Numbered from the stretch's first letter, positions 51,286 through 55,617 are shown. The stretch is DNA of 64,000 bases from an uncultured bacterium (GCA_963717085.1 CAVQVM010000023.1:210627-274626); one strand, 5' to 3'. A program made the numbers and translations. The notes: generated by a model from the sequence alone, not told the origin.

Positions 51286-52518
51286 TCAGGCGAGCCCCAG
51301 CAGCGCGATGGCGATGATCAGGGTGAAGGCGCCCACGAAGTCGACCGACGAGCTGACCAGCGGGATGCCGTAGGTGTCGGGGTCGACCCCGGTGCGATAG
51401 GCGGCCACGGTGCCGTAGTAGGCCACGGCCACGACGAACAGCAGAGCCAGCCCCCCGGCAATGAGCGATGCGGCGACCATCTGGCCCAGTCCGGGGCTGG
51501 CCTCGCCCAGCGCCTCGGCGACCCAGTGGGCGCCGAACCCGTTGAACACGTACACCGGCACGGCGAGCAGGAAGACGAGGGAGATGTCACGCCGCGCCTC
51601 GCGGTCGGGCCCGGTCTGGGGGTCGACCAAGCCCAGGAACAGCTTCGACGAGAGCCGACCGGAGAGGATGCCGCCGAGCGCACCCGAGCTCGACAGCTGT
51701 GCCGGGACCAGCACCAGCAGCGCCGGCAAGGCCTCGAAACGGGCGAACGACTTCTCGAGCGTGACCCCGGCCAGCGCGCTGATGGACCCGGCGACCACGA
51801 GGATGGGAACGGATTCCCGGACGATGCGGCGCAGGCCCTCGCTCGAGGACTCCCAACCCACAAGGAGCAGGAGGAGTGACGCCACCACCAGGACGGCACC
51901 TACCGTGGGCGAGACCACCGGGATCCCCAGCAGCAGCGTGGCCAGGAACAGGGCCGGCAGCGTCAAGACGTCGCCCAGGGTCGAGACGAGCGGGGCCGTG
52001 ACGTTGTCGAGATCCCAGCCGTAGCGAACCGCCCCCCCGGTAAGTGCGAGCGCGGCGCCGAGCACGACCACAGACCCCAGCACTCCACCAATGATGGACA
52101 CGGTGGACATCGACAACAGGTCGATCGAGTCGGCGATCCCGAGCCCGACGGCGATGGCTTTCGCCACGACCGCCAGCGCGAGCGAGATCGCCATTGTGAG
52201 CAACATCGATGCCACGACGTTCTGACCCAGGACGGTCTCGCGTCGCAGTGACCACCTGAACGTGCCGGCATGGATCGACGTCGACAGCCGGTTGCCGAAG
52301 GAGCCGAAGATGTTGCCGCGCAGCCCGATCGCCGCTGGGACCAGCACCAACAGGCCCGGGTAGCGCTCGAGGGTCCCGGTGATCGACCCCAGGAACGCCC
52401 CGGCCACGAAGCTGGTGCTCGAGTTCAGCCCGAGCGCGACGAGGCTCTGCCGGGCGCCGGCCGCGTCCGGCCCCAGGAGTGCGCGCAACCGCGCCCTAGG
52501 CGGCAAGAGCCATCGCAT
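51286..52518 (-). CDS. MgtE/SLC41-like divalent cation transporter with two membrane domains and no CBS domains
   Basis: P-x6-GN (PAAIGLRGN) and D-x4-P-x6-D (DNVTAPLVSTLGD) in domain 1. PAQLSSSGA and PDTYGIPLVSSSVD in domain 2. Confidence 0.88.
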   Translation of the reverse strand: MRWLLPPRARLRALLGPDAAGARQSLVALGLNSSTSFVAGAFLGSITGTLERYPGLLVLVPAAIGLRGNIFGSFGNRLSTSIHAGTFRWSLRRETVLGQNVVASMLLTMAISLALAVVAKAIAVGLGIADSIDLLSMSTVSIIGGVLGSVVVLGAALALTGGAVRYGWDLDNVTAPLVSTLGDVLTLPALFLATLLLGIPVVSPTVGAVLVVASLLLLLVGWESSSEGLRRIVRESVPILVVAGSISALAGVTLEKSFARFEALPALLVLVPAQLSSSGALGGILSGRLSSKLFLGLVDPQTGPDREARRDISLVFLLAVPVYVFNGFGAHWVAEALGEASPGLGQMVAASLIAGGLALLFVVAVAYYGTVAAYRTGVDPDTYGIPLVSSSVDFVGAFTLIIAIALLGLA

Positions 52519-53205
52519 CGGTGCTGTGGTTTCACGAGGCAATCGAGGGGGCTACCCATCGGAGCGCCGCCAGTCTGCAACACCCTGAGGCGGCTGCGGT
52601 GTACCAACGAGGGTCGACTGCGGCCAGCAGATGCCTGCTCGCCGAGCGGCGACCATCTTCACCCTCGTGTTCCTGCTCCGCTCCCCCAAGCGGATTCGGC
52701 AAACCTGTAACAGAGGGCGGGCTCGACGCGATCTCCATCTGTACGGCTCAGACCAGTGCTGAGCCGTTCCGAGGAGCCGGGGTACGGGACGTGCCGGGGA
52801 GTGGCGGGCATCCCCGGCTCCCCTCGGATCCGACCGATCCCGGCCTCAGGCGCCCCTCAGTGCCTGGGGCCGGAACGCGCCTACGGGCCGCACGCCATCA
52901 GAACTCCGGCGAGCGTCGTCGCCATCACCACTGATACCCGTAGCCCTCGCATGGTGCCCTACCTACCGCTCTCCCGCCGCCTGCGGTGCGACGCAAGTAC
53001 TGACGCCCGACCTCCCCGATCCGATGACCAAAAGAGAAGACGTTTCTTGAGCGAGTCGCAGACACGCGACGAGATACGGCGGCGGCGTGTCGCTGCACGT
53101 TGCCGGGGCTACGCGCTATCTCTCGACGGGGCCGAGCACGTGCCCAATCGTCGCCATGGCGGCCCTAGCGACCCACCCCCGAAGCCCGATTTGGTGTCTT
53201 ATGGC

Positions 53206-53607
53206 TCAGGTGTTGGGGCCGATGAGATGGCATACCCGCTGGGGGTCGCAGTCGGCTGGGTCAAGGTGCTGGGCTCGGTCTTCGAGCCGGCCGAGCTCGG
53301 CTCGGAGGCGTCGGAGCTCGCTGATGCGACGGTCTAGGTCGGCAGCGCGGGCGGTGATCAGGTCGAGCACGTGGCCGCAGGGTGTTGTGCCGCGGTCGCG
53401 GAGGGCCACGATCCCACGGATCTCGCCGAGGCTGAGTCCCACCGCTTGGGCCGAGCGGATGAAAGCGAGGCGGTTGGTGGCCTCCGGGGTGTACTGGCGG
53501 TAGCCCGATGGCGTGCGGGCGGGCGGGTCGAGGACGCCGATGTCTTCGTAGTAGCGGATCGTCTTCGCTGTTACCCCGCTGACGGCGGCGAGCTCTCCGA
53601 TACGCAT
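53206..53607 (-). CDS. MerR-family heavy-metal-responsive regulator
   Basis: MRIGELA, TIRYYEDIG, GYRQY, FIRSAQAVGLSLGEI. Cys in TTPCGHV plus C-terminal ADCDPQRVC. Confidence 0.93.
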   Translation of the reverse strand: MRIGELAAVSGVTAKTIRYYEDIGVLDPPARTPSGYRQYTPEATNRLAFIRSAQAVGLSLGEIRGIVALRDRGTTPCGHVLDLITARAADLDRRISELRRLRAELGRLEDRAQHLDPADCDPQRVCHLIGPNT

Positions 53608-53612
53608 CACCC

Positions 53613-53644
53613 TTGACCTTCCAGCGTGGAGGAACCTTTAGGGT
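53613..53644 (+). promoter_or_regulatory. MerR-type promoter/operator 1
   Basis: TTGACC - 20-bp spacer - TAGGGT, with dyad ACCTTCC-N8-GGAACCT at 53616-53637. Confidence 0.75.
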
Positions 53645-53651
53645 AGCGAGC

Positions 53652-54572
53652 ATGGACATCGAGGTGCTGACGGTTCCGGACTGCCCCCACCGGGCGGAGG
53701 CGATGGCGCGGTTGAGGGTCGCCCTGTCCGCCACGAGAACCGAGGGCGGGGTGGTGTCCGAGCGTGTCATCGCGACCGAGGCCCAGGCGGCAGCGGCGGG
53801 CATGAACGGTTCGCCCACGATTCTCGTCGACGGGGTCGACCTGTTCGGGGTGGAGCTGGCCGAGCCCTCGCTGTCGTGCCGGCTGTATCCATCGCAAGCG
53901 GGGATCGAGGGGGCACCGACAGTCGACGCTTTGATCGACGCGCTGGCCAACCGCGGCATCAGTCCGGCGAGCATGGTCAACGACGTCACGTGCGGCGACC
54001 TGCCTGCCGGTCCGGAGGTGTCGGCGCTCGGACGCCAACTCCGCGTAGCCGGATTCGTGGCCCTCTGGCGCGGCGAGCGGCTCAGCGTGGCGGATCTGGC
54101 CGAGGACACAGCGACGGTCGAGGCTCTGGTGGACGCCGGCCGGCTCGAGCTCGACGATCAGGGCGTTGTGGTGGGGGTGCATGGTCTCGTGGCTCGCCCC
54201 ACTGCGCACCGCGTCGAACACGCCGGCGGGGTGATTCACACGTGGTGTGCGTTGGACGCCATCGGGATCCCCGCGGCGCTGGCGCTCGACGCGGCAGTGG
54301 TTTCGACATGCCCGGCGTGTGGCGCTGCTCTGCGGGTCACGCTCGATGCCGGGATACCTGCCGACGACGGCGTCATGCGGCTCTGGCTTCCCGGTGGACA
54401 GTGCACCCATCTCGTGGAGGACTTTTGCCGGCACGCCAACCTGTACTGCACCGCCGAGCATGTTGCTTCCAAGGTTGCGCCCGGGACGCCCGGATGGGCG
54501 GTGACCGTTACTGACGCCGCGGGCATCGGCCGCGTCGAGTGGGCCGACGTGTCTGCCGTACTTGCCTCTTGA
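53652..54572 (+). CDS. merB: Thioredoxin-like domain fused to alkylmercury lyase (MerB) domain
   Basis: N-terminal EVLTVPDCPH..GSPTILVDG..SLSCRLY. C-terminal HTWCALD (MerB Cys/Asp catalytic pair), STCPACG, EDFCRH (second catalytic Cys). Confidence 0.8.
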   Translation: MDIEVLTVPDCPHRAEAMARLRVALSATRTEGGVVSERVIATEAQAAAAGMNGSPTILVDGVDLFGVELAEPSLSCRLYPSQAGIEGAPTVDALIDALANRGISPASMVNDVTCGDLPAGPEVSALGRQLRVAGFVALWRGERLSVADLAEDTATVEALVDAGRLELDDQGVVVGVHGLVARPTAHRVEHAGGVIHTWCALDAIGIPAALALDAAVVSTCPACGAALRVTLDAGIPADDGVMRLWLPGGQCTHLVEDFCRHANLYCTAEHVASKVAPGTPGWAVTVTDAAGIGRVEWADVSAVLAS

Positions 54573-54600
54573 CCTTCCTCTGCACTGGAAGGTGCAGGAT
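54569..54600 (+). promoter_or_regulatory. MerR-type promoter/operator 2, overlapping the merB stop codon
   Basis: TTGACC - 20-bp spacer - CAGGAT, with dyad ACCTTCC-N8-GGAAGGT at 54572-54593. Confidence 0.8.
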
Positions 54601-54609
54601 TCGGGGGTC

Positions 54610-55116
54610 ATGCAACCCGCGATCGAGGCCAACAGCGAACGGGAAGCCACACGCCATTCCATCGGACCGGCAGGGACCGCCGCCCGGGTCGCGGTCGGCA
54701 TCACGCTGGTCGCGCTGGCCCTGTTCTGGTGGACGCCCACCTGGCTCGACTTCATGCTCGGGCTCGTCGTCCTGCCCGGCGCCGCCATCGGCTTGTTCGC
54801 CTGGCGGGCCCGGTACCATCCGGCGCATTTGAACGCGACGGGACCGGTGGGCCATCTGGCGAACGCGATGGTGTTCGCGCCCCTGTTCATCGTGCCCGCC
54901 ACCGCTGGCGGCGCCGTGCTCTTCTACGGCTCGTCGATGCTCGTGGCCGCGGCCCGCCGCTCGGGCGGTTGCGAGGTCACCGTGATCGCCAACACTGCAC
55001 TCAGGCGCGACGATCAGATTGGCTGCGTACTCTTCGCGCCGATCGACCTGACCGAACGTGCCATCAACCGCGACGAGCGCGGCGCCCCTCGATCGACGAG
55101 CCAGGACATGGGCTGA
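54610..55116 (+). CDS. Uncharacterised membrane protein with two C-terminal Cys (possibly DUF6410-like)
   Basis: Several hydrophobic segments followed by GGCEVTVIAN..LRRDDQIGCVLFAPID. The family label is unverified. Confidence 0.75.
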   Translation: MQPAIEANSEREATRHSIGPAGTAARVAVGITLVALALFWWTPTWLDFMLGLVVLPGAAIGLFAWRARYHPAHLNATGPVGHLANAMVFAPLFIVPATAGGAVLFYGSSMLVAAARRSGGCEVTVIANTALRRDDQIGCVLFAPIDLTERAINRDERGAPRSTSQDMG

Positions 55117-55143
55117 GGCCCTACGGGCCGAACGGTTTCGAGT

Positions 55144-55461
55144 TCAGCCAAGTCGGTACCACCTCGAGACGTCGGATTCGAAGCGTCGCATCAGGTCAGC
55201 CGCCCACTGAACGTCCGCCTCGGCTCGGTCAAGCGCGTTGTGGGCCAGGACTCGGAACCGCTCGGGCGGTAGCGACGGGTCACCGCATTCGGGGCAGGGC
55301 CGCCAGTCCAGCTCGGCGAGATAGGCGAGGTACCTGGCCCGTGCGTAATCGGCGCCCTGCATGAACACCTCGCGCCCATCTGGCGGCGGATCGTCGTGGG
55401 CCGCAGTGATCGCCCACGATGCCACGGCCTCCGCCACTCGACGGTGCACCGTGTCGTGCAT
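55144..55461 (-). CDS. Hypothetical protein with a CxxC motif
   Basis: WRPCPECGDP. The start may extend to 55497. Confidence 0.45.
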   Translation of the reverse strand: MHDTVHRRVAEAVASWAITAAHDDPPPDGREVFMQGADYARARYLAYLAELDWRPCPECGDPSLPPERFRVLAHNALDRAEADVQWAADLMRRFESDVSRWYRLG

Positions 55462-55617
55462 CACTCTTGGTGGCCCTCTGTCAATAGCCGGCATCACGAG
55501 CAGTTGAGCAGCTTCCGGGTACCAGGGCGCGGACCACCAGCATCCCCATCAGCGGATGGCGGAGATCGGCTCGATCCCCGCCACGGGGTCGACGTCGGGA
55601 TCTGCAACACTCGACCG

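Follow-up and report, generated by a model that had tools for sequence, protein, structure and literature searches.

We analysed a 64-kb stretch of DNA from an uncultured bacterium (GCA_963717085.1 CAVQVM010000023.1:210627-274626; hereafter the window) that carries a mercury-type gene cassette at positions 53206-55116. The G+C content of the window is ~70%, and its relatives are metagenome-assembled genomes (MAGs) of uncultured Acidimicrobiales/Acidimicrobiia. Three open reading frames (ORFs) make up the cassette: merR on the minus strand (53206-53607), a plus-strand gene fusing a thioredoxin-like domain to the organomercurial lyase MerB (trx::merB) and a plus-strand gene encoding a membrane protein of 168 amino acids (54610-55116). 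This anatomy had been proposed in an earlier reading made without database searches (the sequence-only reading), which pointed to the motifs DCPH, SCRLY, WCALD and FC in the fusion and GCEV and IGC in the membrane protein, and it is confirmed by the ORFs, Pfam matches and alignments. The cassette is a genuine three-gene mercury-type locus of an uncultured Acidimicrobiia bacterium, and this copy looks chromosomal, surrounded by housekeeping-type genes. Because the ratio of nonsynonymous to synonymous substitution rates (dN/dS) is below 1 for all three genes (0.24 for merR, 0.37-0.52 for trx::merB and 0.28-0.35 for the membrane gene), purifying selection is indicated for each of them.

The fusion protein comprises 306 amino acids from the ATG at 53652, with the thioredoxin-like domain in residues 1-105 (53652-53966), an interdomain linker at approximately residues 106-124 (53967-54023) and MerB in the C-terminal two thirds (54024-54572, with the TGA stop at 54570-54572). 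The MerB domain (residues 194-307 of the 319-residue ORF) scores 64 bits in Pfam PF03243, above the threshold of 27, and aligns with the MerB structures 3f2g and 1s6l (E 4e-10) with the catalytic residues in register. Cys199, Asp202 and Cys259, carried by the WCALD and FC motifs, correspond to Cys96, Asp99 and Cys159 in R831b numbering, and Cys220 aligns with Cys117; these four residues form the MerB signature applied in PMC8261052. The catalytic triad of C199, D202 and C259 is invariant among 18 fusion homologues with identities down to 39%. The AlphaFold2 (AF2) model of the fusion has a predicted local distance difference test score (pLDDT) of 90.7 and a predicted template modelling score (pTM) of 0.69. 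It contains two confident domains joined by a low-confidence linker (~residues 105-125; pLDDT 50-55 at residues 101-120 and below 50 at residues 115-121), which is also the split point in relatives. Foldseek matched the C-terminal domain to MerB and MerB2 crystal structures at E ~1e-12 and target TM scores of 0.65-0.74 (0.70-0.74 for 3f2f, 3f0o and 5c17). The MerB of the fusion is a divergent subfamily, whose RefSeq name in plasmids is 'alkylmercury lyase family protein'.

The N-terminal domain is delimited by a family match, conserved residues and the AF2 and Foldseek results. Its best name comes from NCBIfam NF049942, 'DF family (seleno)protein' (E 3.9e-13, 49.2 bits; below the cut-off of 70), and Foldseek gave weak matches to SelW/Rdx-type thioredoxin folds (2oka, 2obk and 2fa8; E 0.04-0.25). 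Although a thioredoxin fold is present, the domain does not have the CxxC of thioredoxins and glutaredoxins; instead it carries a monothiol CPHR (CPN. in homologues) and a second invariant cysteine 65 residues on, in SCRLY. Residues invariant among the 18 homologues are C11 and P12 (DCPH), G53-T56 (the GSPT cis-Pro loop), D60, G61, D63 and F65 (D-G-x-D-x-F), and C76 and R77 (SCRLY).

We gathered 100 related loci (numbered with the prefix L) from genomes and metagenomes, scored their components by tblastn and collapsed them at 95% MerB identity. Counts are given for clusters whose MerB is at least 50% identical to that of the window; denominators are approximate, since a cluster entered them either with sufficient flank or with the feature present. 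In 32 of 34 clusters, MerB is fused to the thioredoxin-like module or lies next to it. The module is encoded as its own gene in L011, L014, L016 and L004: in L011 and L014 (77-80% MerB identity) the protein is split at the linker into two overlapping genes, and in L004 the thioredoxin-like gene is divergent from MerB. Because thiol domain and MerB are fused in some loci and separate neighbours, even divergent ones (L004), in others, this Rosetta-stone pattern fits a functional pair.

An exhaustive HMMER search with the domain recovered 1812 representative clusters, mostly stand-alone proteins of ~100 amino acids, with a minority fused to MerB and occasional members fused to MerR or to a transporter fragment. 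One of them, P0379 (295 amino acids), joins a complete N-terminal MerR regulator to a C-terminal DF-type thioredoxin-like domain and may be a true fusion of regulator and sensor or, alternatively, the product of a run-through gene call. Stand-alone copies adjoin MerR, transporters, P-type ATPases and CsoR-like regulators, in settings without MerB. Because these copies sit with metal-resistance genes and, in L019, directly upstream of a disulfide-reductase-family flavoprotein, the domain looks like a metal-trafficking thiol module. The sequence-only reading had cast it as the acceptor of the metal. Two invariant cysteines and the linkage to MerB fit the partnership part of that proposal, and acceptance of the metal itself stands as a prediction.

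The merR product matches the Pfam families MerR_1, MerR-DNA-bind and MerR (E 1e-15 to 7e-20), which cover a winged helix-turn-helix and a coiled-coil dimerisation helix. Translation most likely starts at the ATG at 53607, giving 133 amino acids; the ORF list instead opens at the GTG at 53610 (134 amino acids). The closest solved structure is the Hg-bound MerR of B. megaterium (4ua1, E 1.4e-21). Cys78, found in TPCGHV where the dimerisation helix begins, is matched in the alignment by Cys79 of 4ua1 and by the cysteines of PbrR (5gpe) and CadR (6jyw), whereas CueR (1q05) has serine at this position. The structure-sequence alignment thus bears out the point of the sequence-only reading that sensors of the MerR/ZntR/CadR type have a cysteine here and CueR a serine. 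As possible metal ligands, the protein offers Cys78 (PCGH) and the C-terminal C-X5-C pair in DPADCDPQRVCH. The first cysteine of this loop pair aligns with Cys120 of CueR, and there is none at the positions of CueR Cys112 or MerR Cys114. The models for CueR, ZntR and CadR score alike on the protein, all below cut-off.

Both plus-strand genes are preceded by the same MerR-type element, a CTTGACCTTCC-N8-GGAAGGT dyad inside a 20-bp spacer. A dyad within an over-long spacer between the -35 and -10 boxes is a hallmark of promoters activated by MerR-family regulators. P1 (53613-53644, plus strand; CTTGACCTTCCAGCGTGGAGGAACCTTTAGGGT) lies 5 nt from the start codon of merR on the opposite strand and immediately upstream of the lyase gene. 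It comprises a -35 box TTGACC (53613-53618), a 20-bp spacer, the dyad ACCTTCC-N8-GGAACCT (53616-53637) and a -10 box TAGGGT (53639-53644). The ATG of trx::merB follows 7 nt past the -10 box, so that a leaderless-like mRNA is predicted from sequence. P2 (54569-54600, plus strand; CTTGACCTTCCTCTGCACTGGAAGGTGCAGGAT) lies between the lyase and membrane genes. Its -35 box TTGACC (54569-54574) overlaps the merB stop codon and is followed, across a 20-bp spacer, by a -10 box CAGGAT (54595-54600), with a perfect dyad ACCTTCC-N8-GGAAGGT at 54572-54593. In a search for 7-8-7 dyads, P2 had zero mismatches and P1 had two. A standard sigma-70 scan with spacers of 16-18 nt found no promoter at P1 or P2, as expected for the over-long spacers of MerR-type promoters; a terminator scan was likewise uninformative.

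The operator is kept in dozens of related loci, before trx/merB genes as well as before the membrane gene. A perfect or near-perfect copy of P2 precedes the membrane gene in L003, L006, L014-L018, L022, L031, L033, L037, L038, L040-L042 and L059. A MerR-type promoter of its own precedes the membrane gene, which is not a plain third gene of a single operon. Both arrangements occur among the relatives: the membrane gene is downstream with its own operator in L014, L015, L022, L006, L033 and L062, and it belongs to a colinear merR-membrane gene-trx-merB-VOC operon in L031, L036-L038, L040-L042 and L059.

The membrane gene most likely starts at the ATG at 54610, not at the TTG at 54562, because the conserved promoter P2 lies directly upstream of the former codon. 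The protein has four predicted transmembrane (TM) helices; AF2 places helices at residues 20-40, 45-69, 79-94 and 96-116, plus two more. The cysteines of GCEV and IGC lie in the segment after TM4 and are invariant or nearly so across the family, as part of the C-terminal invariant motif FYG.SM.VAA.R..GCE....N...RDDQ.GC...P.D..E. This Cys segment alone is covered by a match to Pfam DUF6410 (PF19948) that falls below threshold (21.5 bits against 25, E 2e-4). The family comprises at least 227 clusters, and a few homologues carry a precomputed Pfam DUF6410 hit. NCBI names of cluster members are limited to 'organomercurial lyase', 'hypothetical protein' and 'DUF6410 domain-containing protein'. A fold search with the membrane protein gave zero meaningful PDB matches, Pfam gave no match to MerT, MerC or MerE, and no similarity to known exporters was found. 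MerH was considered and rejected (E 5.6 against MerH of pMM23). A literature search found no paper on DUF6410.

No merA, merT or merP was found in the 64-kb window. A six-frame regular-expression scan of the window for merA, HMA and MerT motifs returned one chance CC hit only, with no MerT-like motif in a real gene, and two disulfide-reductase queries run by tblastn detected no pyridine-nucleotide disulfide reductase of class I there. For the families of the known mer transport and binding genes (merT, merP, merC, merE, merF, merH), Pfam gave the membrane protein no match. Canonical MerA was recognised in the related loci by GGTCVNVGCVPSK together with a C-terminal SCCA. It is encoded in 0 of the 15 close clusters that have enough flank and in 0 of 6 sampled plasmid loci (6-7 kb inspected). 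The co-occurrence survey therefore agrees with the sequence-only reading, which had called the cassette merA-less, and homologous cassettes of this clade do not routinely include merA.

Among more distant MerB loci, L075, L081/L085, L093 and L096 do encode canonical MerA, with GGTCVN(V/R)GC(V/I)PSK and a C-terminal SCCA. In L081/L085, merB is succeeded by an opposite-strand pair, the membrane gene and merR, and then by merA, which diverges from merR; L093 has merA divergent from a merR-membrane gene-merB unit. The MerRs beside canonical merA are 66-67% (L081, L093), 51% (L075) and 44% (Tsukamurella) identical to that of the window and have the same three cysteines, carried by PC.HV and DPADCDPQRVCH. 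In the metagenomic loci, the merA promoters carry the same operator. A cultured example is plasmid 14 of Tsukamurella tyrosinosolvens NCTC13231, in which a RefSeq heavy-metal-responsive regulator is divergent from merA-merB-'hypothetical protein'. This 'hypothetical protein' is homologous to the window membrane protein (36% identity) and has the same GCE...DQ.GC motif; the intergenic region contains a similar TTGACC-dyad element, and the annotation shows neither merT nor merP within 6 kb.

These actinobacterial merR/merA/merB operons (Tsukamurella plasmid 14, L075, L081/85 and L093) thus resemble the window in several respects: a divergent MerR with the PC.HV cysteine and the C-X5-C loop; TTGACC, a spacer of 19-20 bp and a dyad of the ACCTTCC...GGAAGGT type; the Cys/Asp/Cys triad of MerB; and a DUF6410-like membrane protein as an operon member. 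The window differs from them in having no merA, a thioredoxin fold at the N-terminus of MerB and a second operator for the membrane gene. Because operator, MerR type and membrane-protein family are common to canonical merA operons, the locus is, on this comparative evidence, one of mercury biology and not obviously of another organometal. Additionally, because its homologues occur in merA operons without annotated merT or merP within 6 kb, the most economical reading is that the membrane protein fills the uptake or hand-off role held by MerT/MerH elsewhere; the export role that the sequence-only reading had suggested has no support.

MerR is present in 27 of 30 clusters, the membrane protein in 16 of 24, and a zinc-ribbon/VOC (glyoxalase-fold) protein after MerB in 27 of 32. 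The product of this usual fourth gene (L011 8612-9160, L014 4578-5840, L007 8921-10189, L009 8970-9395) has a Cys-rich N-terminus, VCWCCG...C...C..C, with seven cysteines. Its core has the VOC/glyoxalase fold, and many copies end in ankyrin repeats; Pfam supports the assignment weakly (E 0.09 in L011), and the plain VOC protein of L019 has E 9.6e-15. The relative L006, of 95% identity, retains the initial 115 VOC codons between merB and P2; fuller relatives keep the whole VOC(-ankyrin) gene. Compared with L006, the window wholly lacks the ~400-bp segment that holds this remnant, with the deletion junction at 54555-54568, and tblastn of VOC proteins against the junction region gave no match. 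L033, a metagenome contig, has the same VOC-less junction, as do contigs from four public runs (two DNA, two metatranscriptome). Because it recurs in all of these, the junction is not an assembly artefact. Judged from these alignments, the window cassette is a reduced derivative of a larger cassette that is widespread in Actinobacteria and whose VOC gene was lost by a ~400-bp deletion. It is accordingly inaccurate to call it a self-contained module, as had been done earlier.

A separate deletion is seen in L016-L018 (15 contigs from several samples; for example L016 4939-6489), where merB and most of the VOC-ankyrin gene are missing. These loci retain merR, a thioredoxin-like gene of 108 amino acids, the last ankyrin codons, P2 and the membrane gene. 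The cassette is one that deletions have repeatedly remodelled. Soil and rhizosphere metagenomes, as well as two metatranscriptome assemblies, contain the locus with the VOC-less junction. In the rhizosphere metatranscriptome runs X10 and X11, contigs over window positions 52800-55500 span merR, the lyase gene, the membrane gene and the VOC-less junction.

The fusion is also widespread on plasmids. A tblastn search of PLSDB with the N-terminal domain matched 108 actinobacterial plasmids (Rhodococcus, Streptomyces, Arthrobacter, Mycolicibacterium, Nocardia, Gordonia and others), and most matches fall within genes named 'alkylmercury lyase family protein' or 'merB' in the annotation, beside a MerR-family gene. 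We sampled six plasmid merR-MerB loci, from N. farcinica pNF2 (NC_006363.1), R. pseudokoreensis, S. anulatus (pYINM00001), M. gallinarum, Streptomyces NBC_00582 and Rhodococcus WAY2; they are set in multi-metal islands or on a Tn3-type element, with no merA within 6-7 kb. These two-gene modules (Nocardia, Rhodococcus, Mycobacterium, Gordonia and Streptomyces) share with the window the same fusion, an N-terminal domain 46-54% identical, and the adjacent MerR-family gene. Unlike in the window, merR is co-directional in several of them and overlaps the lyase gene, and neither a membrane gene, which the window has, nor a VOC gene was seen in those sampled. The lyase region of Rhodococcus WAY2 is annotated as two overlapping genes.

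Two further plasmids have short 'alkylmercury lyase' genes, L112 7001-7870 (Rhodococcus sp. NBC_00294) and L107 4995-5405 (Gordonia pseudamarae), of 107 and 136 amino acids. The annotation is probably misleading, because their ~100 N-terminal residues are the thioredoxin-like domain and they are too short for MerB. In the Rhodococcus plasmid, a 'VOC family protein' is encoded downstream of this gene.

With moderate confidence, we favour reading the locus as a reduced, mercury-responsive variant of the actinobacterial mer system that does without merA. In the mechanism we propose, Hg(II), and possibly organomercurials, would bind MerR and activate P1 and P2 through the usual MerR distortion of DNA. 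The membrane protein would replace MerT/MerH, either moving mercury species across the membrane or handing them to cytosolic partners via its cytoplasmic Cys pair, and the MerB domain would cleave the C-Hg bond. The tethered Cys11/Cys76 domain would then strip Hg(II) from the MerB active site, as NmerA or thiols do for proteobacterial MerB, leaving the enzyme freed and the Hg(II) thiol-bound. Removal of Hg(II) from MerB by NmerA is established and cited in PMC8261052. No gene of this reduced locus accounts for the final sink of Hg(II); candidates are low-molecular-weight thiols, a reductase encoded elsewhere or, among fuller relatives, the Cys-rich zinc-ribbon/VOC protein, whose gene is lost here.

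The proposed roles have parallels in known mer proteins. The thiol domain would resemble NmerA and MerP as a small two-Cys domain that takes Hg(II) from the cysteines of a partner, and NmerA is likewise tethered to a mer enzyme. The predicted role is the extent of the likeness: the fold is thioredoxin-like and not the ferredoxin-like HMA fold, there is no GMTCxxC, and the domain is fused to MerB and not to MerA. Similarly, the membrane protein is like MerT and MerH in being small, polytopic and encoded in a mer operon, with an essential-looking Cys pair, but it has no sequence similarity to them and its cysteines lie after TM4 instead of forming a CC pair in TM1.

Several observations weigh against the favoured reading. 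The usual VOC partner is deleted in the window. The MerR scores 88.3 bits against the NCBIfam equivalog TIGR02051, below its cut-off of 150.85, and its loop cysteines are off the positions of characterised MerR and CueR proteins, so that metal specificity is read from context. The fusion likewise falls short of the NCBIfam MerB models NF033555 (exception; 73.7 bits against 200) and NF009710 (equivalog; 70.8 against 193). AF2 gives no confident docking of its two domains, the linker being disordered. The absence of merA is established for the 64-kb window, one part of the source genome. Depth is flat over the metatranscriptome contigs and one of them spans the divergent promoter, which is compatible with DNA carry-over and is no proof of transcription. 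A literature search found no paper on the thioredoxin-like::MerB fusion. Lastly, dN/dS of trx::merB is 0.52 against L006 and 0.37 against L015, and constraint on the lyase has possibly relaxed since the loss of the VOC gene, with the 34 substitutions that separate the window from L006 as the basis.

A more far-reaching proposal is that the thioredoxin-fold domain, the DUF6410-like protein and, in fuller relatives, the VOC protein form a MerA-independent route of organomercurial detoxification, in which Hg(II) would go from MerB to the tethered dithiol and then be sequestered or exported via the membrane protein and not reduced and volatilised. We put this forward tentatively and consider it unlikely as it stands. 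If true, it would explain how MerB-only Actinobacteria tolerate the Hg(II) that they produce.

Alternatively, the locus could be a decaying remnant, in which stepwise deletion has left a merR, trx::merB and membrane gene that no longer work as a resistance unit. The VOC gene found in most clusters is fully deleted here and half deleted in L006, the L016-L018 lineage has lost merB as well as most of VOC-ankyrin, and the rise in dN/dS of trx::merB would be expected on this account. Yet the ORFs are intact, the invariant catalytic and Cys residues and both operators are kept, and dN/dS remains below 1. Several independent samples show this VOC-less arrangement, and VOC-less merR-trx::merB two-gene modules are common on plasmids and occur on a Tn3-type element. 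We judge decay to be improbable.

It is also improbable, in our estimate, that the thioredoxin-fold domain serves as a redox helper, which would keep the MerB cysteines reduced or resolve mixed disulfides or S-mycothiolation while Hg(II) leaves on small thiols. Such a role would suit the thioredoxin fold, the cis-Pro loop and the cysteine at the N-terminal active-site position, and the NCBIfam family name implies selenoprotein members, which are typical of redox proteins. It sits poorly with a CPHR whose second cysteine is distant, there being no CxxC, and with the stand-alone homologues that occur in metal-resistance islands without MerB and, in L019, beside a disulfide-reductase-like flavoprotein.

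A substrate other than mercury (organotin, organolead or an organoarsenical), with the membrane protein exporting or sequestering the released metal, is very improbable: MerB and MerR do score below equivalog cut-offs, the spacing of the MerR loop cysteines is unusual, multi-metal islands containing ars, cop and cad genes surround the loci, and the VOC superfamily includes the C-As lyase ArsI, but regulator type, operator and membrane-protein family are common to operons with canonical MerA and a MerB named as such by the Prokaryotic Genome Annotation Pipeline (PGAP), Asp99 is retained in place of the Ser of the copper-binding MerB2-type variant, and the membrane protein gave no indication of an efflux fold, no PDB match and no similarity to a known exporter. 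The sequence-only reading had allowed for a different organometal, which the mer operons with the same operator, three-Cys MerR and membrane-protein family make unlikely.

The favoured reading, a reduced merA-less mer variant, can be set against published systems. Christakis, Barkay and Boyd (2021; PMC8261052) found that 906 of 1795 genomes carrying merB are without merA. Many of these MerB-only genomes are Actinobacteria, including Mycobacteroides, Corynebacterium, Streptomyces, Amycolatopsis, Mycobacterium and Nocardia; the authors state that to their knowledge there are no reported activities of MerB-only organisms, and could do no more than list possible mechanisms. Given this publication, and a fusion found in 108 PLSDB plasmids and mostly annotated as alkylmercury lyase or merB, the cassette is not an undescribed system, for which the sequence-only reading had named it as the best candidate. 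What lacks prior study are its accessory parts: the thiol domain, the DUF6410-like membrane protein and the VOC partner. Our literature search found nothing on a 'DF family' selenoprotein, nor on MerB with glyoxalase or Acidimicrobiia, and the system in PMC3466566 has no thioredoxin-like, DUF6410 or VOC component.

The SAO system of anaerobes (Haft & Gwadz 2022, bioRxiv 10.1101/2022.07.06.499078) combines a MerB-like selenoprotein, SaoL, with the thioredoxin-like SaoT, and so resembles the window in pairing a MerB-family protein with a thioredoxin-fold protein of non-standard Cys motif. Membership of this system was considered and rejected: the SaoL model scores 33.1 bits against a cut-off of 140, and the window has an FC-R motif with no CU or CC. 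The window also differs from SAO in having no selenocysteine, no nine-gene ATP-binding cassette (ABC)/efflux locus, a high-GC actinobacterial host and an unrelated neighbourhood.

The locus and its relatives offer three conserved MerB partners in Actinobacteria, which makes the MerB-only question testable, and the shared operator provides a ready-made reporter. The membrane-protein family is the only membrane-protein candidate in some merA/merB operons, yet its members are annotated 'hypothetical'. The list of mer transport and trafficking proteins may thus gain a new family, which is relevant to predicting methylmercury degradation from soil metagenomes.

Outside the cassette, a gap of ~660 bp (52543-53205) separates merR from an MgtE-like gene on the minus strand (51286-52542) and contains no convincing ORF. 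An Rfam scan of the whole window gave zero families at the gathering threshold, hence no riboswitch or M-box call in this gap.

Disulfide reductases lie near the cassette in L002, L011 and L019 and were rejected as canonical MerA: their active site reads GGEC(S/A)YWACIPSK and they have no C-terminal Cys pair. These flavoproteins are equally near Lpd and MerA in the PDB, and an extra flavoprotein of pMM23 is only 29% identical to them. In L002 (13332-14708) and L011 (11064-12443), both close relatives of the window cassette, a homologue of the L019 flavoprotein (GGECSYWACIPSK; 44% identical) lies ~2.4 kb downstream of merR/trx/merB/VOC; the window has none. The mer-like locus L019 (2823-5231; Solirubrobacterales MAG, GCA_975304595.1), together with L020, encodes ArsR, a YHS/TRASH-type Cys-rich zinc finger, a DF-type thioredoxin-like protein and a class I disulfide reductase. 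TRASH domains were reported never to have been seen in bacterial mer operons (PMC3466566). The L019 reductase has an unusual GGECAYWACIPSK active site, with no C-terminal Cys pair, and is divergent from MerB, a DUF6410-like membrane protein and VOC. The L019 flavoprotein could be an alternative Hg(II) reductase supplied by the thiol protein.

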